38,646 nt of DNA from Nitrospirae bacterium RIFCSPHIGHO2_01_FULL_66_17 (GCA_001803875.1 MHEO01000019.1:4394-43039); one strand, 5' to 3'. Numbered from the stretch's first letter, positions 6,035 through 33,065 are shown. Notes: generated from the letters alone by a model not told the origin. Numbers and translations: made by a program.

Positions 6035-6093
6035 CCGGCCTGGGGCGTGCGGGCGCCGCGGGTTCCTAGCCTGCCGCAAGGGGGGTGATGACG

Positions 6094-6291
6094 ATGTCGC
6101 AGGAGAAGAAACGAGACCTGAAAAAAGTGGGTCGGCGCGACGAAGCGTCGGCAAGCCCCAACCCTGAAACCGTCGAAAAAGGAAAGAAGATGAAGGAAAA
6201 CATCGACAAGCTGCTCGATGAAATCGACGAGGTGTTGGAAGAGAACGCCGAGGAGTTTGTCAAAAACTACGTTCAAAAAGGAGGCGAGTGA
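6094..6291 (+). CDS. pup: Prokaryotic ubiquitin-like protein Pup, ending in GGE
   Basis: C-terminal half IDKLLDEIDEVLEENAEEFVKNYVQKGGE closely matches the conserved Pup helix and tail. The AAGGGGG RBS at ~6079-6085 favours the ATG at 6094; alternative starts are GTG 6085 and ATG 6088. Confidence 0.95.
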   Translation: MSQEKKRDLKKVGRRDEASASPNPETVEKGKKMKENIDKLLDEIDEVLEENAEEFVKNYVQKGGE

Positions 6292-11457: not shown

Positions 11458-11534
11458 CGACGCCCCCGCAATGGACGCTATTCTAGGGGATGCCGGCGTC
11501 CAAAAGCAACCCCCGCATTCCTGAGCGGGAGACC

Positions 11535-11563
11535 TTGCGCGGGCGGGCGATGTTCCCTATAAT
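11535..11563 (+). promoter_or_regulatory. sigma70-type promoter (TTGCGC-17-TATAAT)
   Basis: TTGCGC at 11535-11540, a 17-nt spacer, and TATAAT at 11558-11563. A GGAG RBS at 11570-11573 precedes the ATG at 11579. Confidence 0.5.
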
Positions 11564-11578
11564 GCACCCGGAGTTGTG

Positions 11579-13151
<1,573 letters not shown>

Positions 13152-14582: not shown

Positions 14583-16392
14583 GATCACGTGGGGAGCCGT
14601 CGCCATCGTGGTGTTGATCGGTCTCCTGCTTGCTCGCGCGTGGTACCTGCAGATCGTCACGGGCCACGCGTACCGCGAGCTCGCGGACAATAACCGCGTT
14701 CGGGTGGTCGGCGTGCCGCCCCAACGGGGATTTATCTACGACCGGCGGGGACGGCTGCTGGTCGATAACACGCCCGGGTTCACCCTCTACCTCGTTCTCG
14801 AAGACGCGCCCACACCGCTCGATCCGCTCCTCGAACGCCTCGCTCCCTACCTCGGCATGACCGACGAGGACATTCGCGACCGCGTCACGAACCGCCGGAG
14901 CGGGGGGCCGTACACGCCCGTGCTGATCAAAAGTCACCTCACCCTGAAGGAGGTGGCGCTGATCGAATCGCACCGTCTGGAGTTTCCCGGCGTCAAGATC
15001 GAGGTGGAAGCTCAGCGGAACTACCCGCGCGGGGCGTGGGCGTCTCATCTGTTGGGGTACGTGAGCGAGGTGTCCGCCGCCCAGCGCGAGACGGACGAGT
15101 ACACGGGTTTCCCTCCCGGTATGCAGGTGGGCCAGTACGGCGCGGAGCTGGCCTACGACGCGGTCCTGCGCGGTCAACCGGGCGAAAAGGGGGTCGAGGT
15201 CGACGCGGTGGGGCACGAGCGGCGCATTGTGCGACAGACGCGGCCGGTCCGCGGCGACGATCTGTACCTGACCCTCGACGCCGACGTGCAGCGCGTCGCC
15301 GAGGACGCGCTGGAGGGCAAGGCGGGGGTGGTCGTCGCGCTTGATCCCGCCACCGGCGACGTGATCGCGTCGGTGAGCCACCCGGATTTCGATCCGAACG
15401 TCCTCTCGGTGGGGCTCACGGTGCCGCGATGGGCCGCACTGCTGGCCGACCCCGGCCGGCCCCTCAACAACCGCGCCATCCAGGGGCAGTACCCGCCGGG
15501 GTCCATCTTCAAGATCGTCGTGGCGACCGCGGCGCTGGAGCGGAAGGCGGTCACCGCCGACTCGCGGACCACGTGTCTCGGGGGCATGTTCTTCGGCAAC
15601 CGACGGTTTCGGGACTGGAAGGCCGGCGGGCATGGGATCGTCGACCTGCACCGCGCGATCGTGGAGTCGTGCGATGTGTATTTCTACGAGGTGGGCAATC
15701 AGATTGGCGTCGACGCGATTGCGGAATTCGCCAGGGCGTATGGGTTGGGCGAACCGACGGGCATCCGCCTGCCCTCCGAGAAAAAGGGCCTCATCCCGTC
15801 CACCGGGTGGAAACTGGCGGCGCGGCGCGAACCGTGGTATCCGGGCGAGACCCTCTCGGTCGCCATCGGTCAAGGCTACGTCAACGTGACGCCGCTTCAG
15901 ATGGCGATGATGATCGGCACGGTCGCGATGGGCGGGGAGCGGCACCGCCCGCGCTACGTGCAGTCGATCCATCGCCGGGACGGCACGGTGGACGATCCCG
16001 AAGCCGACGCGTCCCTCAACCCGATGCAGGTGAGTGCGAAGACCTTCGCGCTGCTGCGCCAGGCCCTTCGGGGCGTGGTGGTCGAGCCGGGCGGCACCGG
16101 GGGCGCGGCGCGCTCCGCGGTGACCGAGATCGCGGGCAAGACCGGAACGGCCCAGGTCGTCGGGATCCCGCAGGCGGGCCGGCGTCCCGGAGAGAATCCG
16201 ATCGAGGACCATGCGTGGTTTGTGGCGTTCGCCCCCATGGCGTCTCCTCGCATCGCGGTGGCGGTCCTGGTCGAGCACGGGGGGCACGGCGGCAGCGCCG
16301 CCGCGCCCATCGCCAAGAAGGTCATCGAGGCCTATCTGGGGGCCGCGGGCGAGCCGACGCCAGCCGTCGTGGCGACACGCGCGGCGCTGTAA
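14539..16392 (+). CDS. mrdA: Penicillin-binding protein 2 (elongasome class B transpeptidase)
   Basis: N-terminal TM segment, and transpeptidase motifs SxxK (GSIFK), SxD/N (ESCDVYF) and KTG (GKTGTAQ). Located between mreD and rodA. Confidence 0.93.
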   Translation: MTSLPQDDFQDLYDRITWGAVAIVVLIGLLLARAWYLQIVTGHAYRELADNNRVRVVGVPPQRGFIYDRRGRLLVDNTPGFTLYLVLEDAPTPLDPLLERLAPYLGMTDEDIRDRVTNRRSGGPYTPVLIKSHLTLKEVALIESHRLEFPGVKIEVEAQRNYPRGAWASHLLGYVSEVSAAQRETDEYTGFPPGMQVGQYGAELAYDAVLRGQPGEKGVEVDAVGHERRIVRQTRPVRGDDLYLTLDADVQRVAEDALEGKAGVVVALDPATGDVIASVSHPDFDPNVLSVGLTVPRWAALLADPGRPLNNRAIQGQYPPGSIFKIVVATAALERKAVTADSRTTCLGGMFFGNRRFRDWKAGGHGIVDLHRAIVESCDVYFYEVGNQIGVDAIAEFARAYGLGEPTGIRLPSEKKGLIPSTGWKLAARREPWYPGETLSVAIGQGYVNVTPLQMAMMIGTVAMGGERHRPRYVQSIHRRDGTVDDPEADASLNPMQVSAKTFALLRQALRGVVVEPGGTGGAARSAVTEIAGKTGTAQVVGIPQAGRRPGENPIEDHAWFVAFAPMASPRIAVAVLVEHGGHGGSAAAPIAKKVIEAYLGAAGEPTPAVVATRAAL

Positions 16393-16394
16393 GG

Positions 16395-17516
16395 ATGGTC
16401 AGACTTGATCGCACACGGATCGGGAGCCTGGACTGGAAAGTCTTGGTCGCCATCGGCGTGATCGTCGCCGCGGGGGTGGCCACGATTTACAGCGCGACGA
16501 CGCACCAGGCCGGGAGCCCTTCGGCCCTGTACCTCAAGCAAGCGGCGTGGGCCGGGTTGGGGGTGGCGGTCTTCGCGATCGCGGCGCTCGTCGACTATCA
16601 CACCCTGGCGCGGTACGCGTGGGCCGGGTACGCGGCCGTCGTCGTGCTGTTGATCGGCGTGTTGTTCGTCGGTCGGGTGGGGATGGGGGCGCGCCGGTGG
16701 ATCTCGCTCGGGGTGTTCGACGTTCAACCCTCGGAACTCGCCAAGCTGGCGCTGATCCTTCTCCTGGCGCGGTATTGTGCCGAGAAGCACGTCCGGGGGG
16801 GCCTGGGGCCCGTCCAGCTCCTCGCGCCGCTGGCGGTGGCCGCGATTCCGATCGGGCTGATTCTCAAACAGCCGGACCTCGGCACAGGGCTGACGCTGAT
16901 GGCCATCGCCCTCTGTCTGATGTTGCTGGTTGGCATTCGATACCAATCGATCGTGTTCCTGGGGCTATCGGGGTTGATGCTCTTCCCCTTCTTTTGGCAC
17001 CTGCTCTGGAATTCGCTGAAGGGCTACCAGCGGAATCGCCTGTTGACCTTCGTGAACCCGTCGTCCGATCCGTTGGGGATGGGCTATCACGTCATCCAAT
17101 CGAAGATCGCGATCGGGTCGGGCGGGTTTTGGGGAAAGGGGTTTCTGGGGAGCACGCAGAGCCAACTCAAATTCTTGCCGGAGGGACACACCGACTTTGT
17201 GTTCGCGGTGTTTGCCGAGGAATGGGGATTCGTCGGCGTGCTGGTTCTGCTGGCGCTCTACGGATTCGTTCTGTTCTGGATCGTGGAAACCGCGTACAAG
17301 GCGAAGGACCGATTGGGCGCGTTCCTCGCAGTCGGTGTCGCGGCGATGGTCGCGTTCTCCCTGGCGGTCAACATCGGGATGACCCTGGGGATGATGCCGG
17401 TCGTCGGCGTGCCCTTGCTGCTGATGAGCTACGGCGGGTCCTCGATGTTGACGGTCTTCGCCGCGCTGGGGCTGGTCATGAATGTACGTCTGCGACGGTT
17501 TATGTTATTTTACTGA
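16395..17516 (+). CDS. rodA: SEDS glycosyltransferase RodA
   Basis: The start MVRLDRTRIGSLDWKVL.. is an ATG at 16395, 2 nt after the mrdA stop. FtsW/RodA motifs are present (QPSELAKLALIL, KQPDLGT, PEGHTDFVFAV, GVPLLLMSYGGSS). The track ORF 15429-17516 is an upstream extension. Confidence 0.93.
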   Translation: MVRLDRTRIGSLDWKVLVAIGVIVAAGVATIYSATTHQAGSPSALYLKQAAWAGLGVAVFAIAALVDYHTLARYAWAGYAAVVVLLIGVLFVGRVGMGARRWISLGVFDVQPSELAKLALILLLARYCAEKHVRGGLGPVQLLAPLAVAAIPIGLILKQPDLGTGLTLMAIALCLMLLVGIRYQSIVFLGLSGLMLFPFFWHLLWNSLKGYQRNRLLTFVNPSSDPLGMGYHVIQSKIAIGSGGFWGKGFLGSTQSQLKFLPEGHTDFVFAVFAEEWGFVGVLVLLALYGFVLFWIVETAYKAKDRLGAFLAVGVAAMVAFSLAVNIGMTLGMMPVVGVPLLLMSYGGSSMLTVFAALGLVMNVRLRRFMLFY

Positions 17517-20387: not shown

Positions 20388-22661
20388 ATGAAGAAATCGC
20401 TGGTCATCGTCGAATCGCCGTCGAAAGCCAAGACGCTGAGCAAGTATTTGGGCAAGAAATATACCGTAATGGCGTCTATCGGCCACGTGAGAGACCTGCC
20501 GAAGAGCAAGTTCGGCGTGGACGTCGAGCACGACTTTCAGCCCCAGTACCAGGTCATCCGCGGGAAGAAGAAAGTGCTGGACGAGATCAAGAAGGCCGGC
20601 AAAACGGCCGACCGCATCTATCTGGCCCCCGACCCCGATCGCGAGGGCGAGGCCATCGCCTGGCACATCGCCGAGGAGCTCAACGGCGCGAAGGGGAAGG
20701 TGCAGCGCGTCCTCTTTCATGAGATCACCGAGCGCGCCGTCAAGCAGGCGATCGAGCATCCGGTGCCGCTCGATCTGCACAAGGTCGACGCCCAGCAGGC
20801 CCGCCGGATCCTCGATCGCATTGTGGGGTATACGATCAGCCCGCTGCTCTGGGAGAAGGTGCGTCGAGGCCTCTCGGCGGGCCGCGTGCAGTCGGTTGCG
20901 GTCCGGATCATCTGTGAACGCGAGCGGGCGATTACGGCCTTCCAGAGCGTGGAGTATTGGTCCATCGCCGCGATGTTGGAGGGCAACGCCCCCCCGGCGT
21001 TTGACACCAAGCTGTTCAAATGGCGGGGCGCGGATGTCGCGCTGGCCAGCGAGGCGGCCGCGGCCGATGTGATCCGGGCTCTCCAAGGTGTTCCATACGC
21101 CGTTAGTCAGATCGAAAAGAAGGAGCGGCGCAAAAATCCGCCGGCTCCGTTTACGACCAGTAAGCTTCAGCAGGAGGCGTCGCGCAAGTTGCGGTTCTCG
21201 CCGAAACGGACCATGGCGCTGGCCCAGCGTCTCTATGAAGGGGTCGAGGTTGGAAGCGAAGGTCCGGTCGGTTTGATCACCTACATGCGCACCGATTCCA
21301 CGCGGATTTCGCCGGATGCCCAGGCGGAGACCACCGCGTTCGTGCGCGAGCGGTTCGGCGCGGACTATGTGCCGACGACCCCGAACGTGTTCAAGAACAA
21401 AAAGGGCGCACAGGACGCGCACGAGGCCATTCGCCCCACCGCCGTCACGCGGGATCCCGAACAATTGAAAACGCTGCTCGAACGCGACCTGTATAACCTC
21501 TACACGATGATTTGGAAACGGTTTGTCGCGAGCCAGATGACGCCCGCGATCATGGAGCAGACCCGGGTGGACATCGTGGCGGGCGAGGGGCTCTTCAGGG
21601 CCACCGGCGCCGTCGTGCTGTTCCCGGGCTTCACCACGCTCTACACCGAAACGGCGGAACCGTCGCCGGCCGGCGCGAGGGCGGAGGAGGAGCAGGACGA
21701 GGAGCGGCGTCTGCCGGCGCTTGCCGAGGGGGATCGCCTGCGGCTGCACGAACTGCTCCCGCGCCAGCACTTCACCCAACCGCCGCCGCGGTTCACCGAA
21801 TCCCTTTTGATCAAAGAGCTGGAAGAGCAGGGGATCGGGCGGCCCAGCACGTACGCGGCGATTATCTCCACGATCCAGGATCGCAAATACGTCGCGAAAG
21901 TTGAGGGCCGGCTTCGGCCGACGGAATTGGGCGTCGTGGTCAACGATCTCCTGGTCCAGCATTTTCCCGAGGTCCTCAACGTCCAGTTCACGGCCCACAT
22001 GGAGGAGGATCTCGATCAGATCGAGGAGGGGAACAAGCCGTGGGTGGAGACCGTGCGGGAGTTCTACGGTCCGTTTACCACCTACCTCTCCAAGGCCACC
22101 TCGGAAATGCGCAACGTGAAGCGGGAGGAGCGTCCCACCGAGATCGAGTGCGAACGGTGTCATCGCAAGCTGGTCATCAAGTGGGGCCGCAACGGGCGGT
22201 TTTTGGCCTGTCCGGGGTATCCCGAGTGCAAGAACACGAAGGAGTTCCGCGAAGACGCCGACGGCACGATCGTCGTGGTGCCCAAGGAGACCGAGACATC
22301 GGAGGTCTGCGAGAAATGCGGGAGTCCGATGGTGATCAAGACCGGCCGGTTCGGCCGATTCCTCGCGTGCTCCGGCTATCCCGCGTGCAAGACGACCCGC
22401 TCCCTCGGCACCGGCGTGACGTGCCCGAAACCCGGCTGCGGCGGCCAACTCCTCGAGAAGCGGACCAAGAAGGGTCGGATATTTTACTCGTGCGCGAACT
22501 ACCCCAAGTGCGACTACGCCCTGTGGGAGCGCCCGCTGCCCAAACCCTGCCCGCAGTGCCATGCCCCATTCGTCGTCCAGAAAACGGCGCGCGGTGCGGA
22601 GCCCCGGGCGCACTGCATCGCCGAGGGCTGCGGCTACGAAGAAGAAGAGCCCGCGGCGTAA
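20388..22661 (+). CDS. topA: DNA topoisomerase I with four C-terminal zinc ribbons
   Basis: Toprim (LVIVESPSKAKT), the catalytic Tyr region (GLITYMRTDSTR) and four CxxC..CxxC-type modules (CERCHRK..CPGYPEC, CEKCGSP..CSGYPAC, CPKPGCGG..CANYPKC, CPQCHAP..CIAEGC). Confidence 0.97.
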   Translation: MKKSLVIVESPSKAKTLSKYLGKKYTVMASIGHVRDLPKSKFGVDVEHDFQPQYQVIRGKKKVLDEIKKAGKTADRIYLAPDPDREGEAIAWHIAEELNGAKGKVQRVLFHEITERAVKQAIEHPVPLDLHKVDAQQARRILDRIVGYTISPLLWEKVRRGLSAGRVQSVAVRIICERERAITAFQSVEYWSIAAMLEGNAPPAFDTKLFKWRGADVALASEAAAADVIRALQGVPYAVSQIEKKERRKNPPAPFTTSKLQQEASRKLRFSPKRTMALAQRLYEGVEVGSEGPVGLITYMRTDSTRISPDAQAETTAFVRERFGADYVPTTPNVFKNKKGAQDAHEAIRPTAVTRDPEQLKTLLERDLYNLYTMIWKRFVASQMTPAIMEQTRVDIVAGEGLFRATGAVVLFPGFTTLYTETAEPSPAGARAEEEQDEERRLPALAEGDRLRLHELLPRQHFTQPPPRFTESLLIKELEEQGIGRPSTYAAIISTIQDRKYVAKVEGRLRPTELGVVVNDLLVQHFPEVLNVQFTAHMEEDLDQIEEGNKPWVETVREFYGPFTTYLSKATSEMRNVKREERPTEIECERCHRKLVIKWGRNGRFLACPGYPECKNTKEFREDADGTIVVVPKETETSEVCEKCGSPMVIKTGRFGRFLACSGYPACKTTRSLGTGVTCPKPGCGGQLLEKRTKKGRIFYSCANYPKCDYALWERPLPKPCPQCHAPFVVQKTARGAEPRAHCIAEGCGYEEEEPAA

Positions 22662-22754
22662 GCAGACAATGAGGCCGAAGGCCCTCCCTGTGGGCCGTGC
22701 AGCCACCCGCCGCGTAGCCTGTCGCTGAGGCCGCAGGACTTCCCGACCATCCGC

Positions 22755-22784
22755 TTGATGCTCCCGTGAGCGCCGTGGTATGAT
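22755..22784 (+). promoter_or_regulatory. sigma70-type promoter (TTGATG-18-TATGAT) for the ATP-grasp/kamA/dcd unit
   Basis: TTGATG at 22755-22760, an 18-nt spacer with TGG immediately before the -10 element, and TATGAT at 22779-22784. Confidence 0.45.
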
Positions 22785-22805
22785 CTTTCACATGTCGGTC
22801 GAGCC

Positions 22806-24386
22806 GTGTCCGAACCGGTGCGCGCTCACGGAACGTGGGGAGAGATCGATCCCGTCTCCGTGGGCACCGGTTCACCTTCCGGGAGTGGCGATCCGCCCTT
22901 GAACGTGTTTTTAGGTCCGGACACCAGGCTGCCTGCGGACCATCGGCCTCCTTCCCTCGCGGGGCCGAACTCGGCGGCGGACGCTTGCCGCGTGCTGTCG
23001 GCGGTGCGGCGCGAGGGGTTGTACGAACGTCGCGAGGGCGACGGCCTGCCCCGCTGGCGGGTGAGCCCTGAGCCGTACTGGTTGGCGCCGGCGGACGTGG
23101 AGGTGCTCGAACGGCTGGGGCCGATCCTCCTCGCCTTCTACCGATCGCTCAATCGCCTCTATTACCTGAGCGTCAAGACCCCCAAGCTCGCGTGGGTTCA
23201 TCGCTACCTCGATCAGGGCAAGCCGGAGTCGGTGATCGAGTACGGCCGGATGCGCCGGGTTCGCGAGCAGGTCCCCGGGATCCTGCGGCCCGACCTCTTC
23301 GTGACCGAGACCGGCTTGATCGCCTCGGAACTCGATTCGGTGCCCGGGGGATTCGGGCTGACGGCCGCGTTTCAGGCGGTCTACGGCGAGTTGGGGCACC
23401 CCCTCGTCGGCGGGCCCGACGGCGTGGTCCGCGCGTTCGCGGACATGGTTGGTCCCGGGTCCCGCGTGGCGATCGTCGTGTCGGACGAGTCCACCGATTA
23501 CCGCGCCGAGATGGCCTGGATCGCGCGGGCGCTGACCGCCCATGGAACACCCGCGGACGCGGTCGCCCCAGGCGAGGTCACGTTCACGGAGGAGGGGTTG
23601 ACCGTCGGGCCAGCGGCCAGCTCCCGGCGCGTCGACGTGCTCTACCGCTTCTTTGAGCTGTTCGACCTCAAGAACGTCCCGAAGTCGGATCTCTTCCTCT
23701 ACGCCGCCAAGAAGGGCGCCGTCAGGATGACCCCTCCCGCCAAGGCGTTTCTCGAAGAGAAATCTGCGATGGCGCTCTGGCATCACCCGGCGCTGGAGGT
23801 GTGGTGGCGGGACGATCTGGGAGCGGAGGTCGCCGACGCGCTCTCGCGGCTGTTTCCAAAGACCTGGATCCTGGATCCGTCCGAGGTGCCGCCGCACGCG
23901 GTGATTCCCGGCTTCACGCTCGGCGGGCGGCCGGTCCGCGATTGGCGGGACCTCGCGGCCGCGAGCCAGCGGGAACGCCGACTGGTGATCAAGCCGTCCG
24001 GCTTTTCGGAGCGGGCATGGGGAAGCCGCGGGGTGGTGGTTGGACACGACCGCTCGTCGGAAGCCTGGTCCGCGGCGGTGGATGAGGCCCTCCGAGCCTT
24101 CCCGACGACCCCCCACGTCCTGCAGGAATTCCATACGGCGCGGCGGGACGACGTGGCGTATTACGACGAAGGGAGCGACGCGATCCGGCCCATGAGCGGC
24201 CGGACGCGCCTGTCCCCCTACTATTTCGTGTCCGGTGACGACGTGGTGTTGGGCGGGGTTCTCGCGACGGTGTGCGCGCTGGATAAGAAGCTGATCCACG
24301 GGATGGCCGACGCCGTCCTCGCGCCGTGCGCCGTGCGCGCCGCGCCAGGCCGCGCCGCGACCGATGGCCAAGGAGCGAACGCGTGA
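22806..24386 (+). CDS. ATP-grasp-like amidoligase (glutathionylspermidine-synthase / permuted ATP-grasp-like), 526 aa; function unknown
   Basis: Central ILRPDLFVTETGLIASELDSVPGGFGL resembles the R-x-D...E-x-N/D-x-x-P-G core of GspS/CP-ATP-grasp ligases. The C-terminal LVIKPSGFSERAWGSRGVVVG ... HVLQEF ... resembles ATP-grasp nucleotide-binding strands. The coding call is solid; the family assignment is from memory only. The exact start is uncertain because GTG 22806 has no clear RBS. Confidence 0.6.
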   Translation: MSEPVRAHGTWGEIDPVSVGTGSPSGSGDPPLNVFLGPDTRLPADHRPPSLAGPNSAADACRVLSAVRREGLYERREGDGLPRWRVSPEPYWLAPADVEVLERLGPILLAFYRSLNRLYYLSVKTPKLAWVHRYLDQGKPESVIEYGRMRRVREQVPGILRPDLFVTETGLIASELDSVPGGFGLTAAFQAVYGELGHPLVGGPDGVVRAFADMVGPGSRVAIVVSDESTDYRAEMAWIARALTAHGTPADAVAPGEVTFTEEGLTVGPAASSRRVDVLYRFFELFDLKNVPKSDLFLYAAKKGAVRMTPPAKAFLEEKSAMALWHHPALEVWWRDDLGAEVADALSRLFPKTWILDPSEVPPHAVIPGFTLGGRPVRDWRDLAAASQRERRLVIKPSGFSERAWGSRGVVVGHDRSSEAWSAAVDEALRAFPTTPHVLQEFHTARRDDVAYYDEGSDAIRPMSGRTRLSPYYFVSGDDVVLGGVLATVCALDKKLIHGMADAVLAPCAVRAAPGRAATDGQGANA

Positions 24387-25510
24387 CCGACCAATGGAAA
24401 TATGACCTCCGGGACAGTCTGGAGGCGACGGAGGATCTCATCGAGCGCCTGGGGCTCTCGACGCGTGAAGCCGACCGCCTACGCGAGGTGGTGACGCGCT
24501 ACCCGATGCGCATCACGCCCCACGTCCTCAAGACCATCCGGTACCAGGGCGATCCCATCTGGCTGCAGGTGGTGCCGACCACCGAGGAGATGGAGCTCGA
24601 CTACGAAATGCAGGACGATCCGTTGAACGAGGAGGGCGACATGGTCGTTCCGCACCTCGTGCATCGCTATCCGGACCGGGTCCTGCTCTTCGTCACCAAT
24701 CAGTGTCCCGTCTATTGCCGGTTTTGCACCCGCAAGCGCTTCGTCGGGTCGCCGGGGGGCACCATCACGCCCGAGGCGATCGAGGTCGTCACGGACTACA
24801 TCCGATCGCACCCCGAGATCCGCGACATCATCTTCTCCGGCGGAGACCCGCTCCTCCTGGTCGACAGTCTTCTCGAACGGATCCTGTCCGCGCTCCGCAC
24901 AATCCCGCACCTTGAGATTATCCGCATCGGATCGCGCGTGCCGGGCACGCTCCCGTCGCGGATCACGCCCGAGCTGTGCGCGATGCTCCGGCGCTATCAC
25001 CCGCTGTACATGAACCTCCACTTCAACCACCCGGACGAGATCACGCCCGAGGTCGCCGAGGCGTGTGGTCGACTGGCCGACGCCGGCATCCCGCTCGGCA
25101 GCCAGACCGTGTTGCTCAAGGGGGTCAACGACGACCCCGACACGATGAAGCGCCTCATGCATGCGCTGCTGAAGATCCGAGTGAAGCCCTACTATCTCTA
25201 CCAGGCCGACCTGGTGACGGGCACCCACCAGTTCCGCACCCCGGTCGAGACCGGCCTCAACATCCTCAGGGCCCTCCACGGCCACACGTCGGGGATGGCA
25301 ATCCCGCGCTACGTGATCGATGCGCCGGGCGGCGGCGGCAAGATCACGGTGGTCCCTCCCGAGTTCGTGCTCGAGATCAACGCCCGCGAGGTGATTCTGA
25401 AGAACTACGAGGACCAGGTGTACCGATACCCGCAGGTTGAGGCCGTCCCGGACGCCGTCCCCGCGGATGATCCCGCGCGGCTGACTCCCCTGCAACGATT
25501 ACCCTCATGA
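24383..25510 (+). CDS. kamA: Lysine 2,3-aminomutase (KamA-family radical SAM/PLP enzyme), ~375 aa
   Basis: [27 protein letters not shown] contains the CxxxCxxC cluster. Also present are [27 protein letters not shown], and YQAD and [10 protein letters not shown], which carry the lysine-binding Asp equivalents and the PLP Lys. GTG 24383 overlaps the upstream stop (GTGA). The track start at 24326 is an upstream extension. Confidence 0.92.
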
Positions 25511-25530
25511 AGGCGGAAGGAGTGGGAGCA

Positions 25531-26082
25531 ATGGTCAAAAACGACCGCTGGATTCGACGAATGGCCAAAGAGCACGGGATGATCACGCCGTTCGAGGAAA
25601 AGCAGGTCCGGGAAGGCACGATCTCTTACGGCCTCTCGTCGTATGGCTACGATCTGAGAATCTCGGATGATTTCAAGATCTTCACGAACATCAACCACAC
25701 GACGGTCGATCCCAAGGACTTCGACGTGAAGTCCTTCGTGGATTTCAAGGGCGAGGTCTGCATCATTCCTCCGAACTCGTTCGCGCTGGGGCGCAGCGTC
25801 GAATATGTCAAGATTCCCCGCAGCGTGATCACGGTGTGCGTGGGCAAGTCCACCTACGCGCGCTGCGGCATCATCACCAACGTGACCCCCTTCGAGCCCG
25901 AGTGGGAGGGCCATGTGACGCTCGAAGTGTCCAACACCACTCCGCTTCCGGCCAAAATCTACGCGTTCGAAGGGATCGCGCAAGTCCTGTTCTTCGAGAG
26001 CGACGAGGAATGCGAAACGTCGTACGCCGATCGCCGGGGCAAATACCAGGCTCAGCGAGGTATCACGCTCCCCCGCCTGTGA
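25531..26082 (+). CDS. dcd: dCTP deaminase
   Basis: [89 protein letters not shown]. An AAGGAG RBS favours the ATG at 25531 over the track start at 25507. Confidence 0.93.
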
Positions 26083-26280
26083 TCGTCGCGAGCCGTTTGG
26101 CGTGGTAAATTCTTATCCATCTTTGCCGATCGTCTGAGCCGTGATGGGTTCCGAGCGACGAATGAGCGGGGAAGATGCGGGTTATCGGCCTAAACATCCC
26201 CAAGTTTCGGCGTTGAGACGGGTGAGGACATTATATAACCGTTTGGCGGGCCACCGAATTCCCCAAAAGATGAAAAATGC

Positions 26281-26309
26281 TTGACACCGGAATGGGCGTT
26301 TGCTATAAG
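26281..26309 (+). promoter_or_regulatory. Strong sigma70 promoter for the cold-shock gene (TTGACA-17-TATAAG) with an upstream A-rich tract
   Basis: A consensus TTGACA at 26281-26286, a 17-nt spacer, and TATAAG at 26304-26309. The A-rich CCCCAAAAGATGAAAAATGC lies immediately upstream and looks UP-element-like. The implied 5' UTR is ~80 nt. Confidence 0.65.
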
Positions 26310-26395
26310 CAAACATGCCGATGGCAGCAGGTCGGCAGTGTTCGTGACAGGTTCGGTTTCCAGCAAGGGTTTGTTCCGAAAGGAGGGTACGCGCA

Positions 26396-26596
26396 GTGGC
26401 ACGAGGAAAGGTAAAGTGGTTCAACGCCAGCAAGGGGTACGGGTTCATCTCCCAGGACGACGGGAGCGACGTGTTCGTCCACTTCTCGGCAATTCAGGGT
26501 GATGGGTTCAAAACCCTGGATGAAGGCCAGGAGGTCGAGTTCGACGTCATTAAGGGGGCCAAGGGTCCGCAAGCGGCCAACGTCGTCAAAGCCTGA
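26396..26596 (+). CDS. cspA: Cold-shock protein (CspA family), 66 aa
   Basis: RNP1/RNP2 motifs (KGYGFI, VFVHF). GTG start preceded by an AGGAGGG RBS at 26381-26387. Confidence 0.95.
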
Positions 26597-26625
26597 ACGC
26601 GTTTACCCTCCCACACGCATGTTAA

Positions 26626-26657
26626 GGCGCCCTTTCGGCACGTTCCGGAAGGGCGCC
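26626..26657. terminator. Hairpin between the convergent csp and hemW genes (putative bidirectional terminator)
   Basis: GGCGCCCTTTCGG (26626-26638) pairs with CCGGAAGGGCGCC (26645-26657). This gives 13 bp including one G-U pair, with a 6-nt loop. There is no strong U-tract on either strand. Confidence 0.5.
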
Positions 26658-26672
26658 CGCGGTTCTGACCGT

Positions 26673-27848
26673 TTACAGGAACTCCTCGGCGATCATGTCC
26701 GCGAGATTGAGCCCCCGGGGTGTGAGTCGAATGAGGGGGCGCCTCGGCTCGACCAAGCCCATCGCGATCAGACGGTCGAGGGGCTGAGCGTAGCGCTCCC
26801 ACGGGTCGACGGTGAAGCGCACCCGCAGACGGTCGCCATCGATGCCCCCGATCATCCGGATCCCGAACGCGAGCGCCTCGGCGAGACGGCGCTCCGGGGT
26901 GAGTTGCTCCCGGTCCGCCGTCCAGCGCCCGTCCTCCCCTTCCCGGACGTAGTCGTCCGCGTCGAAGTGGTTCCACCAGCGCCGGCCGTCGACGTGCGAG
27001 TGTGCGCTGGCACCCAGCCCCAGCCAGTCGTCGCCCGACCAGTACAGCAGATTGTGCCGGCACGCGCGGCCGGGCCTGGCATAATTGGAAATCTCGTAGC
27101 GATTGAACCCGGCCGCGTCGAGCCGGTCGTGCAGGACGGCCTCGAGTGTGTCGACCTCGTCATCGGATGGCAGCGCGGCGCGCCCCTCCTCGACGGCGAG
27201 TCCGAAGGCCGTGCCGGCCTCGGGGGTCAGCGCGTACGCGGACAGGTGGTCGGGCTCCAGCGCCAGCGCCGCATCGACGGTGGCGGTCCACGTCTCGGGA
27301 GCTTGGTCGGGGATCCCGTAGATCAAGTCGAGGCTCAGGTTGGCGCAGCCCGCGCGCCGCGCCGCCTCCCACGCCCGCACGACGCGCTCGGACGAGTGGG
27401 CCCGTCGGAGCGCGGTCAACTCGCGCGGGTCGAAGGACTGAACGCCCAGGCTGATGCGGGTGACGCCGGCGTCGAGGAAGCCGCGGAGCCGGTCGTACGA
27501 AACCGTCTCGGGGTTCGCCTCGAGGGTGATCTCGGCGTTGGGCGCCAGGGCGAACGCCCGCCGACAATGGTCGATCAAGGCCGCGATCTCGGAGGGCGCG
27601 GCGAGCGAGGGGGTGCCCCCGCCGAAGTACAGGGTGCGGGCGGTTCGCCCCGCGTACGCGCCGCCGTGGGCGTGCGCGTCGATCTCGCGATGCACCGCGT
27701 CCTGGTACGCCGAGATGATCCCGCGCGAAGCGGGGCCGGAGCTAAACGCGCAATAGGCGCACTTGCTCACGCAGAACGGGATGTGGAGGTACACACCGAA
27801 ATCGGGGTCGGACGCGGTGCGCGCCTCGGCGGGGATGGGCAAAACCAT
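26673..27848 (-). CDS. hemW: Radical SAM heme chaperone HemW (HemN-like coproporphyrinogen III oxidase family), 391 aa
   Basis: YLHIPFCVSKCAYCAF contains the CxxxCxxC cluster. Also present are FGGGTPS, ISLGVQSF, YEISNYARPG and HNLLYW. I prefer the internal ATG (complement of 27846-27848) over the 452-aa track ORF, whose Pro/Arg-rich N-terminus looks non-coding. Confidence 0.9.
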   Translation of the reverse strand: MVLPIPAEARTASDPDFGVYLHIPFCVSKCAYCAFSSGPASRGIISAYQDAVHREIDAHAHGGAYAGRTARTLYFGGGTPSLAAPSEIAALIDHCRRAFALAPNAEITLEANPETVSYDRLRGFLDAGVTRISLGVQSFDPRELTALRRAHSSERVVRAWEAARRAGCANLSLDLIYGIPDQAPETWTATVDAALALEPDHLSAYALTPEAGTAFGLAVEEGRAALPSDDEVDTLEAVLHDRLDAAGFNRYEISNYARPGRACRHNLLYWSGDDWLGLGASAHSHVDGRRWWNHFDADDYVREGEDGRWTADREQLTPERRLAEALAFGIRMIGGIDGDRLRVRFTVDPWERYAQPLDRLIAMGLVEPRRPLIRLTPRGLNLADMIAEEFL

Positions 27849-28029: not shown

Positions 28030-30324
28030 ATGGCGTCATCGCGTAGGCCCCGCCGTCGCCGCCGCGGTCGCTGGGCGGTCTGGCTTGTCCTCGCCGTGGG
28101 GGCGGGCTATCTCGGCTCGCTATACCTGACGGTCACGTCCCGATTCGAGGGGCCGCGGTGGAAGGTGCCCTCCACGGTGTACGCCGAACCGGTCACAATC
28201 TATCCCGGGATGGATCTGGCCGCCCACCAGATCCACGATCGACTCCTGCGTCTCGGGTACGGCCCGGTCGCGGGCGGGCCCACTCGTCCCGGTGAATTTC
28301 GATGGACCGACGACCGCCTGGATTTGTACTTGCAGGATTTCGTCTATCCCGACCATCGCGTTCAGGGATTTCCGGTCGCCGCCGATCTCCGCAACCACCG
28401 GGTGGAGCGGCTCGTCCGTTCGGACGACGGTGTCTCGATCCCCAGCGTCGACCTGGAGCCCGAGGTGATCGCGGGCCTCTTCGACGAAAGCTGGGAGGGG
28501 CGCCGGCTGGTCCGCCTCGCCGACGTGCCGCCGGCCCTCGTGGACGCGATCGTCTCCATCGAGGATGTCCGGTTTTACAACCACTGGGGCATCGATCCGC
28601 GCGCGATCGCTCGGGCCCTGTGGACCGACCTGAAGGAGAGAGAATTCGCCCAGGGCGGCAGCACGCTGACCCAGCAACTCGTCAAGAATTTCTATCTCAC
28701 CCAGGAGCGGACGCTGTACCGAAAGGCCACCGAGGCCCTCATGGCGCTGATGCTCGAGGCACGGTACAGCAAGGGCGAGATCCTGGAGGCATACCTCAAC
28801 GAGATCTATCTCGGCCAGCGGGGCGACATGGGGGTGTACGGGGTGGGCGAGGCGTCGATCCTCTATTTCGGGAAGGACGTCGAGCGCCTCACCCCGGCGG
28901 AGTCCGCCCTCCTGGCCGGGATGATTCGCTCGCCCCGCGCCTACAACCCGCAGACCGACCCGGACCGCGCGCGCGCCCGGCGGGATCGGGTGATCCGTCG
29001 CATGGTGGAGCTGGGGAAGATCGGCGCCGCCAACGCCGACGCGGCCCTGACGGATCCGGTGCCGACGCGCCCCAAGGCGCGCACCGCGGTACGCGCGCCC
29101 TACGTGGCCGACGTGGTCCGTGAGCAGCTCGAACGTCTCTATTCGCGCGACGTGCTCACGTCGGAGGGGCTTCGCATCTTCACGAGCCTCGACGTGGAGA
29201 AGCAGCGCGCGGCCGAGGAGGCGCTGCGGGCCGGTCTTGCCGGTCTCGAGCGGCGCCTGCCGAAGGGGCCCGAGCCGTTGCAGGGCGGGGTGATCGTCAT
29301 GCAGCCGCAGACCGGCCATATCCTAGCCCTGATCGGCGGCCGGGACTACGGCGAGACCCAGTTCAACCGGATGACCCAGGCGCGGCGGCAGCCCGGCTCG
29401 CTGTTCAAGCCGATCGCGTACCTGGCCGCGCTGCGCAAGGACGCGGAGACCGGCGCCCCGCGCTACACGCCGGTGAGCGTGGTTGAGGATGTCCCCGTGA
29501 CGGTGATGGCGAACGGCCAGCCGTGGACGCCGCAGAACTACGACAAGGTCTACCACGGCCCGGTCACGCTGCGCACCGCCCTCGAATACTCGTTCAATGC
29601 CGCGGCGGTCGGCGTCGCCCAGGCGATCGGGGTCGAGCGCATCATCGAGACGGCACGGGCGCTGGGCCTCACGACGCCTCTCCCGCCGGTGCCGTCGCTG
29701 GTGCTCGGCACGTCGGAGGTCATCCCCCTGGAGCTGGCCGCGGCCTACGCCGTGCTGGCGAACTTCGGCGCCAGGACGGAGCCCTTGATGATCAAGGCGG
29801 TCATGGACCGGGACGGCCAAGTCCTGGCCCGCAAGGAGATCGCGGTCGACCAGGTCGTCTCGCCCGAGGAGGCGTACCTGATCACGTCGCTCTTGCGGGG
29901 CGTGGTCGAGCGCGGCACCGGTCGCGGCGTGCGCGCGCTGGGGTTTGACCGGCCGGTCGCGGGGAAAACGGGCACCACCAGCGACTTCCGGGACGCCTGG
30001 TTCGTCGGCTACACCCCGGAAACGCTGGCGCTCGTGTGGGTGGGGTACGACCACAATCAGTCGCTCCACCTCACGGGGGCGCAGGCGGCGTTGCCGATCT
30101 GGACCGACGTCATGCGCCGCGTGACGGCCGGGGAGCCGATCACCGACTTCACGCCGCCCCCCGGGATCGTGCTGCGCCGCATCGATCCGGCGAGCGGTCT
30201 GTTGAGCAACAGCCGGTGCCCCGACGCGATCACCGAGGCGTTCCTGGCCGGCACCGAGCCGACCGGATCGTGCGCGGGCGGCCCGCCTCGCTTCCTGCGA
30301 TGGCTGCGCCAGGTGTGGGGGTGA
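28030..30324 (+). CDS. mrcB: Class A penicillin-binding protein, PBP1B-like (TM + UB2H-like insert + glycosyltransferase + transpeptidase)
   Basis: Arg-rich N-terminus and TM segment (WAVWLVLAVGAGYL). About 130 aa lie between the TM and GT51 domains, where PBP1B carries UB2H. GT51 motifs are present (IEDVRFYNHWGID, GGSTLTQQLVKN, RKATEALMALMLE). So are the TP motifs SxxK (GSLFK), SxN (SFN) and KTG (GKTGTT). Confidence 0.9.
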   Translation: MASSRRPRRRRRGRWAVWLVLAVGAGYLGSLYLTVTSRFEGPRWKVPSTVYAEPVTIYPGMDLAAHQIHDRLLRLGYGPVAGGPTRPGEFRWTDDRLDLYLQDFVYPDHRVQGFPVAADLRNHRVERLVRSDDGVSIPSVDLEPEVIAGLFDESWEGRRLVRLADVPPALVDAIVSIEDVRFYNHWGIDPRAIARALWTDLKEREFAQGGSTLTQQLVKNFYLTQERTLYRKATEALMALMLEARYSKGEILEAYLNEIYLGQRGDMGVYGVGEASILYFGKDVERLTPAESALLAGMIRSPRAYNPQTDPDRARARRDRVIRRMVELGKIGAANADAALTDPVPTRPKARTAVRAPYVADVVREQLERLYSRDVLTSEGLRIFTSLDVEKQRAAEEALRAGLAGLERRLPKGPEPLQGGVIVMQPQTGHILALIGGRDYGETQFNRMTQARRQPGSLFKPIAYLAALRKDAETGAPRYTPVSVVEDVPVTVMANGQPWTPQNYDKVYHGPVTLRTALEYSFNAAAVGVAQAIGVERIIETARALGLTTPLPPVPSLVLGTSEVIPLELAAAYAVLANFGARTEPLMIKAVMDRDGQVLARKEIAVDQVVSPEEAYLITSLLRGVVERGTGRGVRALGFDRPVAGKTGTTSDFRDAWFVGYTPETLALVWVGYDHNQSLHLTGAQAALPIWTDVMRRVTAGEPITDFTPPPGIVLRRIDPASGLLSNSRCPDAITEAFLAGTEPTGSCAGGPPRFLRWLRQVWG

Positions 30325-30827
30325 CCATCCGGGTTCGCATCGCGCTCGCGACCGTCGCGCTGCTGGGCGGGCTTCTCGCCTGCGCGCTCGAACGGCCGCT
30401 GCCCTCCGACGAGCCGATTCCGCCGGACGCCTCGGCGGCGCCGCAGGTGGTCGCCGCGTATCACCTCGTCGAAGATGGGCGGCAGCAACTGGCGATCGGC
30501 CAGACGGCCGCGGCGATCGCGACCTTCCAGAAGGCCCTCGCGCTGGCGCCGTCGAGTCCCCACGCCAATTTCGCGCTGGGCGAGGCGAAACTCCGGCAGG
30601 CGGACTATCGCGCGGCGCTGATCTATGGCGATCGGGTGGCCCGCCTGGTGGGGAACGATCCCGAGTGGCGGCGGCGCGTGGCGCTGCTGCGCGGCCAGGC
30701 GTACGAAGGCGCCGGGGACATGGCGCGCGCGCGCGAGGCGTACCTCGACGTCCTCAGGCTTGACCCCGGCAGCGGCGAAGCGCGCGACGGTCTGGGGCGC
30801 CTCGGCGACGCCCCGCCCATCCCGTAA
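30321..30827 (+). CDS. TPR-repeat lipoprotein, candidate LpoP-like PBP1B partner
   Basis: Signal peptide with a lipobox (ALLGGLLAC), a Pro-rich linker (ERPLPSDEPIPPDASAAPQ), then TPR-like repeats (AIATFQKALALAPSSPHANFALGEA.., GDMARAREAYLDVLRLDPGSGEA). GTG 30321 overlaps the mrcB stop (GTGA); ATG 30300 is an alternative start. The track ORF 30036-30827 is an upstream extension. Confidence 0.7.
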   Translation: MTIRVRIALATVALLGGLLACALERPLPSDEPIPPDASAAPQVVAAYHLVEDGRQQLAIGQTAAAIATFQKALALAPSSPHANFALGEAKLRQADYRAALIYGDRVARLVGNDPEWRRRVALLRGQAYEGAGDMARAREAYLDVLRLDPGSGEARDGLGRLGDAPPIP

Positions 30828-30875
30828 CGGCGCAATGGTCTCGCCGTCATCGGGCTCCGCTTCCTGGAGCGTCGC

Positions 30876-33065
30876 ATGACGCGGCGTCGGTGGCCCCTGT
30901 CCGGTGGACGGCGGGCGCTCGGAGCGGCCGCGCTTGCGGTCGGCCTGCTGGTCCTCGCGCTCGCCGCGGTTCCGTTCTTTGTCGATCTCGATCGGTACCG
31001 GGACCGGTGGCTGCCCGCCGTCGAATCCGCGCTCGGGCACCGGGTGGAGGTGGGGCGCGTCGAGCTCACGGTGCTGACGGGGCTGGGCGCGCGGGTGGAC
31101 GGTCTGGCGGTCCACGGCGATCCGGCCGACCCCGAGCCCCTCCTCGCGGTGGAGTCGGTCCGCCTCCGCGTCCGGCTGCTTCCGCTCCTCCGCGGCCGCG
31201 TGGTCGTTGCGCGGGCGGTCCTCATCCGCCCCGCCCTTCGGTTCGTTGCACGCGCCGCCGGCCCGCCCGCCGCGGACGGCCCGCACGCCGGCGTCGGCGC
31301 ATCCCCCGACCAGCCGCCTGATTCGGCCCAGCCGAACGCATCCCGTTTCGGGCTGGCCGCCCTGTCGCTCGCCGACCTGACGATCCGGGACGGCTTGCTC
31401 TCCTACGAGGACCGGTCGGGAGGGGGGGCGGCCCGCTACGAATTGGATCGGATCGACGCGACACTCGCGCGCGTCGCGGTCGGCGAGACCCTCGCGGTGG
31501 ACGCGACGGGGCGTCTCGCGGGTGCCGACCTCCCGGTCTCGCTCACCGCGACGGCGGGCCCGCTGGACGCCACGTTCAAGCCCGCCGCTCTCGACGCGGC
31601 GCTCCAGATCGGCGACAGCCGCGTGACGCTCACCGGCACAACCGAGGCGGCGGGGCTCTCCCTGTCGGCTCGGGCCGAGCGCCTTGACCTGACGCAGCTT
31701 CTTGCGGCGACCCGCCGACTGACCGGTGCCGTGCCCGCGGCCCTCGCGCTCTCGGGTTCGGGCGCGTTCGCGCTGGCGGCGCGGCCGGCTGGCGATCGGT
31801 ACGAGCTCGACGGCCGGATCGACCTCGATGCCGCCCGCGTCGCTTACGGGACGTGGTTTGCGAAGCCCGAAGGCGTGCCGTGCTCGGCGGCGTTCACCGG
31901 CGCGTTGAGTCGGGACGAGGCGCGGACGCCTCAGGTGGCGCTGTCCGCCGTCACGGTGCGCCTGCATACCGTCGAGGCCACAGGGCGCGCGACGGTCGCG
32001 CTCGGCGGCCGCTTCTTGGTGCCGTTTTACGAGCGGATCGTCGGACGGGGGGAGCTCGACACAGGCGATACGCCGCTTGACGGCTGGGAGCGCCTCGTCC
32101 CGGCCCTGGGGGGCGGCGCGCTGTCCGGGCGCGCGCGGCTCCGGGCGGCGTGGGCGCTCGACGCGGCTCACCCGCCCGCGTACACCGCGTCGGTCCGCCT
32201 CACCGACGCGCGGGTGGCGGTTGGGGGATGGGCCAAGCCGATCGAGGGCGTCACCGGCACGGTGGCGCTGGAGCGCGGGGTGGTGGTGCTCAAGTCGGTC
32301 ACGGCGAGGGTGGACGACGGCGCCGTGACCCTCCGCGGCCGGATCGACCCGTTCGCGCCGAAGCCCGCGTTCGATCTCGACGTCGGCGTGGATCGGGTGC
32401 AGGCGGCCGACGTCTTGGCGCGCTTCACCTCGCTCAAGGACTTTCTTTCCGGTCGGCTGACGGGCCAGGTGGCGCTCTCGGGGGTGGGGACGACGTGGGA
32501 AGACCTCGCGCCCACGCTGACCGGGCGGGGCGAGCTGGCGGTGACGGAGGGCGTGTTTCGGACGTTCAACGTCCTCAAGGATCTGCTGGGATCGGCGGAG
32601 GCGCTGGAGACGAGCCGGCTGGCCGAGCGGCCCGACACGCCGTTCGACCGCTTTGCGGCCTTGATCGAGATCCGCGACCAGGCGCTGCGCATCCAGGACG
32701 CCCGGCTTTCCGCGGGGGAGTTCGGCGCGACCGCTGATGGTGTCGTCGGGTTCGACTCGTCGATCGATGCCCGGGCGCGGGTGAGCGTGCCGCGGGCGTC
32801 GGTCGGCGGATTCGCCAACACCGCCATCGGAGCCGCACTGGCGGGCGACGACGGTCGCCTCCACATCCCGGTCCGCCTTTCGGGACGGCTTCCGAAGCCG
32901 GCCGTCGCCCTGGACCGGACCGCAGCGCTGGATGAGGCGACGCAGCGCCTGCGCAAGCGGGCGAGCGAGACGCTGCGCGAGTTCCTGGATCAGCCGGAGT
33001 CGGATGGGAAAGCGTCCCCCCGGGACCTGCTCAAAGGGTTGCTGAAGCGGGAAGACGGTCGGTGA
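30876..33065 (+). CDS. AsmA family outer-membrane biogenesis / lipid transport protein, 729 aa
   Basis: N-terminal TM anchor followed by AsmA-like repeats (VGRVELTVLTGLGARVDGLAV.., LLRGRVVVARAVLIRP, C-terminal LSGRLPKPAVALD). Long beta-rich periplasmic protein. Confidence 0.75.
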   Translation: MTRRRWPLSGGRRALGAAALAVGLLVLALAAVPFFVDLDRYRDRWLPAVESALGHRVEVGRVELTVLTGLGARVDGLAVHGDPADPEPLLAVESVRLRVRLLPLLRGRVVVARAVLIRPALRFVARAAGPPAADGPHAGVGASPDQPPDSAQPNASRFGLAALSLADLTIRDGLLSYEDRSGGGAARYELDRIDATLARVAVGETLAVDATGRLAGADLPVSLTATAGPLDATFKPAALDAALQIGDSRVTLTGTTEAAGLSLSARAERLDLTQLLAATRRLTGAVPAALALSGSGAFALAARPAGDRYELDGRIDLDAARVAYGTWFAKPEGVPCSAAFTGALSRDEARTPQVALSAVTVRLHTVEATGRATVALGGRFLVPFYERIVGRGELDTGDTPLDGWERLVPALGGGALSGRARLRAAWALDAAHPPAYTASVRLTDARVAVGGWAKPIEGVTGTVALERGVVVLKSVTARVDDGAVTLRGRIDPFAPKPAFDLDVGVDRVQAADVLARFTSLKDFLSGRLTGQVALSGVGTTWEDLAPTLTGRGELAVTEGVFRTFNVLKDLLGSAEALETSRLAERPDTPFDRFAALIEIRDQALRIQDARLSAGEFGATADGVVGFDSSIDARARVSVPRASVGGFANTAIGAALAGDDGRLHIPVRLSGRLPKPAVALDRTAALDEATQRLRKRASETLREFLDQPESDGKASPRDLLKGLLKREDGR

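Follow-up and report, generated by a model that had tools for sequence, protein, structure and literature searches.

A candidate beta-lysine ligation module: an ATP-grasp-like ligase gene coupled to a lysine 2,3-aminomutase gene in a Nitrospirota-like genome

Introduction

What is made by a gene pair in which a lysine 2,3-aminomutase is translationally coupled to a ligase that no family model recognises? The question is raised by a 38,646-nt stretch of DNA from Nitrospirae bacterium RIFCSPHIGHO2_01_FULL_66_17 (GCA_001803875.1, MHEO01000019.1:4394-43039), here called the window and analysed over its whole length, in which an open reading frame (ORF) for a predicted ATP-grasp ligase, ORF-A, overlaps the start of kamA. 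An earlier note on this DNA, made from the sequence alone, had interpreted the two genes as a candidate beta-lysine ligation system, and the analysis reported here supported that interpretation. We consider it slightly more likely than not that ORF-A and kamA form a co-translated module making a small-molecule beta-lysine amide, with beta-lysine as the presumed substrate and a free amide as the presumed product.

The features of the pair were as follows (PLP, pyridoxal 5'-phosphate; CDS, coding sequence; SAM, S-adenosylmethionine).

22806-24386, + strand: maximal reading frame of ORF-A, 526 aa, GTG start, TGA stop at 24384-24386
22992-24386, + strand: likely CDS of ORF-A, 464-aa ATP-grasp ligase (codon-position GC and an independent gene call)
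22806-22991, + strand: 5' extension of ORF-A, probably leader and not coding (codon-position GC, disorder, non-conservation)
24383-25510, + strand: kamA, radical SAM/PLP lysine 2,3-aminomutase, 375 aa, GTG start (TIGR00238, alignment to 2A5H)
24370-24375, + strand: ribosome-binding site of kamA, AAGGAG, within the 3' end of ORF-A and 7 nt 5' of GTG 24383
22755-22784, + strand: sigma-70-like promoter candidate (TTGATG, 18-nt spacer, TATGAT, upstream TG) in the 144-nt gap 3' of topA

Fold and motifs of the ORF-A protein

No Pfam or NCBIfam hidden Markov model matched ORF-A, even at E<=1, and PDB sequences gave no match by phmmer or by family profile. Two of the Pfam models that the earlier note had put forward for the 526-aa protein, PF03738 and PF14403, did not recognise the window protein, nor did the curated models PF04174, PF03917 and PF08443; marginal matches to CP_ATPgrasp_2 or GSP_synth (PF14403/PF03738) were obtained for 5 of 67 relatives. 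More than 7,279 homologues were found, all named 'hypothetical' and without a precomputed Pfam domain, and clustering at 90% identity leaves the family with more than 7,000 clusters. Of the 50%-identity representatives, 1,670 clusters passed E<=1e-3 and 392 passed the stricter E<=1e-30. No characterised unrelated family contains ORF-A, in agreement with its earlier description as uncharacterised.

An AlphaFold2 model of ORF-A was built from 31 homologues (pLDDT 81, pTM 0.83) and searched with Foldseek, which returned ATP-grasp ligases at probability 1.0 over ~500 columns (E 1e-14 to 1e-5; best TM-scores 0.59/0.67), including PDB 8fbz, 2hgs, 3kal, 5oes, 3n6x, 9cjn, 7uka, 7uk6 and 2io7. The matched enzymes were eukaryotic glutathione (GSH) synthetase, homoglutathione synthetase, a nematode GSH-synthetase-like effector and a putative glutathionylspermidine synthetase (GspS), and further the CP_ATPgrasp protein 3N6X, Cp1B, YgiC/YjfC, GspS and trypanothione synthetase. 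Cp1B is the ligase of the E-64 pathway (PMC12568646), and YgiC carries the annotation peptide--spermidine ligase. All matches at E 1e-14 to 1e-7 were small-molecule amide ligases or their close homologues; the protein-modifying RimK aligned with the model at E 2e-5 and TM 0.23.

Conservation was evaluated in the 67 relatives, which were 28-50% identical to ORF-A. Invariant in ORF-A and all of them were R161, P162, D163, P180, G184, R391, K396, G399, Q440, R468 and H498, while E175 and D177 were kept in at least 90% and E317-E318-K319 was almost invariant. The segment LRPDLFVTETGLIASELDSVPGG of ORF-A reads R161-P-D163-x11-E175-L-D177 and has the same spacing as R316-x-D318-x11-E330-x-N332 of E. 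coli Gss (GRMDFCMDERGLKVYEYNADSAS); in YgiC the spacing of the R-x-D...E-x-N/D motif is off by one residue. We take the R-x-D/E-x-N/D residues of GspS, the KP and glycine-rich loop and the hinge Q/E to serve Mg/ATP and the acyl-phosphate. Alignment of ORF-A family profiles with E. coli YgiC by hhalign had a sensible topology at non-significant E-values (0.07-0.2), and placed, likewise without significance, 'VIKPSGFS...G' over YgiC 'VVKPIFSREG' and 'VLQEFH' over 'IVQQFH'. An invariant acidic stretch, S226-D-E-S-x-D-Y-R-x-E235, lies near the position of D-I-E391-E392-N-Y in GspS and would suit a cationic substrate.

ORF-A was assigned to the GSH-synthetase/GspS-like clade because of its fold matches together with a GspS motif of identical spacing, and on the predicted structure it is an active-looking member of an unmodelled, circularly permuted ATP-grasp clade of this kind. 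The ATP-grasp and GspS-like motifs described in the earlier note were thereby confirmed at the level of both motif and fold, with a Foldseek probability of 1.0 and catalytic motifs that are invariant or nearly so in the 67 relatives.

Identity and active site of the aminomutase

The window KamA scored 297.4 bits against TIGR00238 (cut-off 199.2), carried PF04055 (radical SAM) and PF12544 (LAM_C), both past their gathering thresholds, and was 49% identical to the lysine 2,3-aminomutase (LAM) of Clostridium subterminale (2A5H) and 36% identical to E. coli EpmB. Its residues C108, C112, C115, R117, D276, D313 and K320 correspond to C125, C129, C132, R134, D293, D330 and K337 of 2A5H, with CPVYCRFC aligned to the three cysteines, YQAD to D293, and a 10-residue block to D330 and K337. 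The CxxxCxxC motif, the PLP lysine and both aspartates previously reported for this protein, which bind the epsilon-amine, were thus all present, as was the arginine that binds the carboxylate. In glutamate 2,3-aminomutases the equivalents of C. subterminale D293 and D330 are replaced. All seven residues were kept in every complete ORF-A-linked KamA, that is in 50 of the 52 rows of an alignment that includes the window protein and 2A5H, the other two rows being gapped or holding X. Scores fell below every equivalog cut-off (AblA 434/525, glutamate 394/650, arginine 354/600 and EpmB 242/369 bits), AblA being the best equivalog match. Judged by its active-site residues, the window KamA is a lysine-type 2,3-aminomutase.

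Linkage of ORF-A and kamA across genomes

A scan with ORF-A, restricted to one genome per species, gave at least 592 relatives; the best 80 were analysed, and 77 of these were informative for adjacency to kamA. In 61 of the 77, kamA lay immediately 3' of ORF-A on the same strand, and such loci were spread over seven phylum-level lineages. This is the enrichment beside kamA that the earlier proposal of a functional pair had implied. By taxon, the 61 loci were from Nitrospirota (50), Nitrospinota (5), Chloroflexota (2), Bacillota (2), Armatimonadota (1) and a gammaproteobacterium of the Acidiferrobacteraceae (1), and ORF-A seems to be kept throughout the Nitrospira and Nitrospina lineages sampled and across several candidate phyla. 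The two genes often overlapped or lay less than 100 nt apart across linked loci, with an overlap or a gap of <=5 nt in L026, L049 and L079 and a distance within ~40 nt in L045 and L071.

At least one poribacterial genome (L019, a 6,153,064-bp chromosome) had no kamA beside ORF-A and encoded a close KamA elsewhere (P0317), where kamA adjoins a cyclophilin gene and pyrG. As a side observation, the gene 3' of kamA in a poribacterial genome encodes CTP synthase, and in Nitrospirota a dCTP deaminase gene holds this place, a possible link to cytidine nucleotides.

The order of genes was rearranged in L088 (439-5454), which reads KamA, a VTT/DedA membrane protein, a protein of no assigned identity (267 aa) and an ORF-A homologue (42% identity) with a 128-aa N-terminal extension. 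The VTT/DedA protein of this locus has 408 aa and a weak papain-like (NlpC/P60, C92) signal at its C-terminus.

Gene boundaries and coupling in the window

ORF-A had been described as a gene of 526 aa; the reading frame 22806-24386 exists, and its coding part is probably 464 aa, from GTG 22992. Codons 1-62 of the 526-aa frame have a position-specific GC content of 0.69/0.64/0.70, matching intergenic DNA, and the gene body has the coding signature 0.71/0.50/0.87. Residues 1-47 were disordered in the AlphaFold model and not conserved among homologues, and a database protein 99% identical to ORF-A is annotated at 464 aa. Independent calls on L095, a near-identical contig in ENA, gave proteins of 464 aa, 375 aa (4-nt overlap), 183 aa (Dcd) and 66 aa (a CSD protein). 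Because of the GC signature, the disordered and non-conserved N-terminus and the 464-aa calls, the CDS was set to 22992-24386, and GTG 22992 is most likely the real start. An Rfam scan of the ORF-A leader (~200 to ~330 nt) detected no lysine or other riboswitch.

The TGA of ORF-A (24384-24386) overlaps the GTG of kamA (24383-24385) in the tetranucleotide GTGA, a 4-nt overlap. This overlap, noted earlier, was verified together with the AAGGAG inside ORF-A, and the calls on L095 have identical boundaries. Upstream, TTGATG-18-TATGAT was the sole sigma-70-type match in 22400-26700 (4.3 kb), where 0.6 were expected from shuffles. That count taken alone is weak evidence, and the site falls in the gap between topA and ORF-A; the promoter-like element of the earlier note is retained as a candidate.

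Recurrent neighbours of the pair

A gene for a CPxC thioredoxin-fold protein of ~80 aa joins ORF-A and kamA in 55 of the 80 ORF-A loci, lying between them in Nitrospirota and Nitrospinota and 3' of kamA in Armatimonadota. The protein matched GST_N_3 and Glutaredoxin, resembled YruB, mycoredoxin and Uxx-star below the cut-offs of those models, and carries the signature 'VPVL.DG..L.E(T/S)..I..(Y/H)L'. Its presence as a third member hints at a thiol-containing partner or product. A role as LysW-type carrier was rejected, as its C-termini are not conserved. Neither the window nor L001 has the gene.

Throughout the sampled Nitrospirota kamA is followed by a dCTP deaminase gene, which occurs in two non-orthologous forms. 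The short form of 183 aa was found in the window, L001, L067, L095 and L096, and 34 Nitrospira loci had a two-domain protein of 383 aa (PRK07559), its start and the kamA stop sharing 4 nt (for example L053 9204-10355 and L004 9091-10242).

Several membrane-related genes recurred. In 29 Nitrospira loci (L053 4243-5760, - strand, and 28 others) an MprF-C-like gene lies divergently 5' of ORF-A. Its product, observed separately, has 505 aa, an N-terminal CxxCxxCC domain, LPG_synthase_C (aminoacyl-phosphatidylglycerol synthase) and no NCBIfam match. Genes for ABC-2 exporters are operonic in L049 and near ORF-A in L045, L066 and L072, and an Lgt gene overlaps kamA in L079. None of the Nitrospira-type neighbours (the glutaredoxin-like, long DCD, MprF-C-like and other membrane or export genes) occurs in the window.

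Aminomutase loci elsewhere

Partners of KamA were also surveyed from the aminomutase side, in 80 metagenomic loci whose KamAs were 52-84% identical to a Desulfuromonas relative. The contexts of kamA were as follows.

33 of 80 loci: at least one D-Ala-D-Ala-ligase-like (Ddl-like) ATP-grasp directly 5', most with two and a GNAT
About 6 more loci: GNAT only, on short contigs
8 loci: ORF-A and/or the glutaredoxin-like gene
5 loci (L103-L106, L121): USP-like / transglutaminase-like / ABC exporter
1 locus (L112): epmA and efp

Very similar lysine aminomutases are thus paired with different conjugating enzymes, and in gene context no partner is as common in this sample as ATP-grasps, which come from two unrelated clades. 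The Ddl-like ATP-grasps beside similar KamAs offer independent support for an ATP-grasp enzyme that consumes beta-lysine.

In Desulfuromonas carbonis CP015080 (L099 5449-9086) the Ddl-like operon comprises two Ddl-like ATP-grasps, a RimI-like GNAT and KamA, all below NCBIfam cut-offs; it was also seen in L101, L102, L108, L111 and about 30 other metagenome loci, and we know of no characterisation of it. A separate arrangement of KamA, a tandem-USP-like protein, a transglutaminase-like protein (PDB 3ISR-like), an ABC ATPase and a large putative permease was observed in L104 (2468-8477), L105 (5379-11474) and L121 (6001-10293). For the genes 3' of kamA in L103-L106 and L121 an identity with kdd/kamDE of lysine fermentation was considered and rejected, PDB searches having returned USP-like, transglutaminase-like and ABC ATPase proteins.

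Proposed function and alternative explanations

In the favoured reading KamA would act on L-lysine by radical SAM/PLP chemistry and yield beta-lysine (3,6-diaminohexanoate). ORF-A would spend ATP on turning a carboxylate into an acyl-phosphate, from which an amide bond to an amine is made. Beta-lysine would be either the amine or the carboxylate partner in this reaction, and a small-molecule beta-lysine amide would result. The CPxC glutaredoxin/GST-N-like protein would be the third member of the module in most Nitrospirota and Nitrospinota. In keeping with this reading, the structural neighbours closest to ORF-A are small-molecule ligases or homologues of such enzymes, and among them are two classes that act on a beta-amino acid (homoglutathione synthetase) or on a polyamine (GspS, YgiC).

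Several points weigh on the other side. Sixteen of the 77 informative loci were without an adjacent kamA (Poribacteria, Latescibacterota, Eremiobacterota, Vulcanimicrobiota and Dormibacterota) and ORF-A relatives of 28-40% identity are mostly stand-alone; the core reaction of the family may therefore not need beta-lysine. The substrate of ORF-A is not readable from sequence, no statistically significant link to known ATP-grasp families was obtained at profile level, and the window has no other biosynthetic gene to supply a partner substrate. Nor is operon membership proof of a shared pathway, because dcd is equally tightly linked in Nitrospirota.

The same two enzymes might instead attach beta-lysine to a macromolecule, either to Lys34 of elongation factor P (EF-P), with ORF-A as an EpmA analogue independent of tRNA synthetases, or to an exported or flipped lipid or wall polymer. 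The housekeeping setting between topA and dcd is compatible with this, the E. coli EF-P route uses the KamA homologue EpmB, and in L112 a KamA of this similarity range adjoins efp and epmA; recurrent membrane, lipid and export neighbours (MprF-C-like, ABC-2, Lgt, VTT/DedA, and the operon of KamA with USP-like, transglutaminase-like and ABC proteins) point the same way. Those neighbours are, however, all missing from the window, where tblastn with E. coli EF-P and EpmA gave no match either, as was the case in the 80 ORF-A loci (6 kb). KamA itself scores 434 bits for AblA against 242 for EpmB and shares 49% identity with LAM against 36% with EpmB, and the closest folds to ORF-A are small-molecule ligases, RimK being a weak match (E 2e-5, TM 0.23). 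We regard attachment to a macromolecule as unlikely. An EF-P/EpmA system identified by adjacency was rejected, with efp and epmA absent from the window and the 80 loci and the EpmB model below cut-off. A GNAT acetyltransferase of AblB type was likewise not found, the window pair being flanked by topA and dcd and none of the repeatedly seen neighbour clusters that were scanned at the 80 loci matching a GNAT model. In sum, the window and the surroundings of the 80 loci hold no epmA, efp or ablB-type gene.

Two further explanations were considered. ORF-A could act on substrates unrelated to beta-lysine, for example as a glutathione-type peptide synthetase in phyla without canonical GshB, in an operon with kamA and in a different pathway, the beta-lysine going elsewhere. 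That many family members are stand-alone, that glutathione synthetases are the best structural matches, that a glutaredoxin/GST-N-like gene accompanies ORF-A in 55/80 loci and that dcd is an unrelated housekeeping gene in the same operon all speak for it; yet the pair persists over seven phylum-level lineages, also in rearranged order and with other neighbours changing, start and stop codons overlap in several phyla, a second type of ATP-grasp was independently recruited beside similar KamAs, and some loci without kamA are in genomes that keep a close KamA elsewhere. On this evidence we give it little credence. A charge-balanced beta-lysine amide could also serve as a compatible solute, parallel to AblA/AblB or to the dipeptide N-acetylglutaminylglutamine amide (NAGGN), whose synthesis follows a GNAT plus ATP-grasp logic. 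AblA is the closest model to the window KamA, the family occurs in marine Nitrospinota and sponge-associated Poribacteria, and the operon of two Ddl-like ATP-grasps, GNAT and KamA may by analogy resemble NAGGN synthesis. An osmolyte appears improbable to us all the same: Nitrospirota from freshwater, groundwater, soil and wastewater conserve the family just as well, the housekeeping operon is constitutive and the window has no transporter or osmoregulatory gene, and the glutaredoxin-like partner is left unexplained.

The glutaredoxin/GST-N-like partner and the GSH-synthetase fold leave room for a more novel and quite speculative reading, to which we assign a low probability. In Nitrospirota, Nitrospinota and allied phyla, ORF-A, the CPxC protein and KamA would make and use a low-molecular-weight thiol not known before, with the redoxin as its dedicated oxidoreductase. 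Candidate thiols are gamma-Glu-Cys-beta-Lys, an analogue of homoglutathione in which beta-lysine replaces beta-alanine, and a glutathionyl-beta-lysine amide comparable to glutathionylspermidine.

Comparison with known systems

Both folds and both chemistries are known; new are the unmodelled ligase family, its coupling to KamA across phyla and the glutaredoxin-like third member. Among the papers searched, none linked an ATP-grasp enzyme to a lysine 2,3-aminomutase, treated beta-lysine in Nitrospira or Nitrospina, or described the glutaredoxin-like member.

The best fold matches to ORF-A were eukaryotic GSH and homoglutathione synthetases (2HGS, 8FBZ, 3KAL, 1M0W; E 1e-14 to 1e-11), ATP-grasp enzymes that proceed by acyl-phosphate to amide, homoglutathione synthetase adding a beta-amino acid (beta-alanine). 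They differ from ORF-A in their low identity (13-15%), in that ORF-A has no Pfam GSH-synthetase match, and in having gshA as gene partner where ORF-A has an aminomutase. Gss, YgiC/YjfC, trypanothione synthetase and 3N6X also share the fold (E 7e-12 to 1e-5). The GspS family and ORF-A have in common the R-x-D-x11-E-x-N/D spacing and the KP...G and (I/V)xQ(Q/E)F motifs; enzymes of this family couple a carboxylate to an amino group of a polyamine, to which beta-lysine, as a diamine, is comparable. Unlike GspS, ORF-A is without an amidase domain, and the hhalign comparison was insignificant (E 0.07-0.2).

In the PylB/PylC system of pyrrolysine biosynthesis a lysine mutase of the radical SAM type generates a diamino acid that is not proteinogenic, which an ATP-grasp ligase joins by an amide bond. 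PylB is not of the KamA family, PylC is a Ddl/CPS-type ATP-grasp and pylD, pylS and pylT are absent from the locus; the likeness is an analogy only. AblA/AblB, EpmB/EpmA and the window pair all combine a KamA-family aminomutase with an adjacent enzyme that conjugates its product (for the window pair, as proposed here); AblB is a GNAT acetyltransferase and EpmA a LysRS paralogue, whereas the conjugating enzyme of the window would be an ATP-grasp, and the window KamA scores under both equivalog cut-offs. A further comparison is with the operon of two Ddl-like ATP-grasps, GNAT and KamA, whose KamA is 58% identical to a Chloroflexota KamA linked to ORF-A and is directly coupled to ATP-grasps; these belong to another ATP-grasp family (D-Ala-D-Ala-ligase-like), and the operon has the additional GNAT.

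If the proposal is correct, an ATP-grasp route would add to two known fates of KamA-made beta-lysine in primary metabolism, acetylation (osmolyte) and EF-P lysylation, and the parallel Ddl-like operon suggests a wider beta-lysine peptide chemistry. Thousands of 'hypothetical proteins' of a family invisible to Pfam and NCBIfam could gain an annotation. Nitrospira and Nitrospina are the principal nitrite-oxidising bacteria in soils, in the oceans and in wastewater plants. Knowing what the pair produces could uncover a new metabolite, redox buffer or modification in organisms that are difficult to cultivate.

Genomic setting and other observations

The gene 3' of kamA was confirmed, as in the earlier note, to be dcd at a distance of 20 nt.

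25531-26082, + strand: dcd, dCTP deaminase, 183 aa (TIGR02274, 165 bits, cut-off 92.8)

The sequence GGAAGGAG is present at 25515-25522, ahead of the ATG at 25531, which lies 20 nt past the kamA stop, and dcd is probably on the same transcript as ORF-A and kamA. The window is a housekeeping stretch of a Nitrospirota-like chromosome (66% GC) with thiG, a Pup-proteasome cluster, mreBCD-PBP2, RNase G, dprA, topA, ORF-A, kamA, dcd, cspA, hemW and PBP1A, and this gene order is repeated in the relatives L095 and L096. PADLOC defence models gave no meaningful match and plasmid and phage collections no homologue; with the housekeeping setting, a defence system or mobile element was rejected on these grounds. 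Four genes 3' of ORF-A in the poribacterial locus L017 (10794-11672), a CAP12/Pycsar-type TIR effector protein is encoded, probably an unrelated defence gene.

Other observations concern the rest of the window. A complete Pup-proteasome cluster at 2535-9166 comprises the Mpa/ARC ATPase, two genes of the Pup-ligase family (dop/pafA), prcB and prcA. Five ORFs of high GC at third codon positions, one of them 934 aa long, have no Pfam match: 30057-32864 (-), 15-611 (+), 10175-10747 (+), 11483-12187 (-) and 16332-16946 (-). Beside dcd lies the cspA CDS (26396-26596, +, 66 aa) with a 5' untranslated region of ~245 nt, and the interval 26149-26658 matched Rfam RF01766 (cspA thermoregulator) at 80.9 bits (gathering score 78), an enterobacterial model whose occurrence in a Nitrospirota-like genome of 66% GC is unusual.

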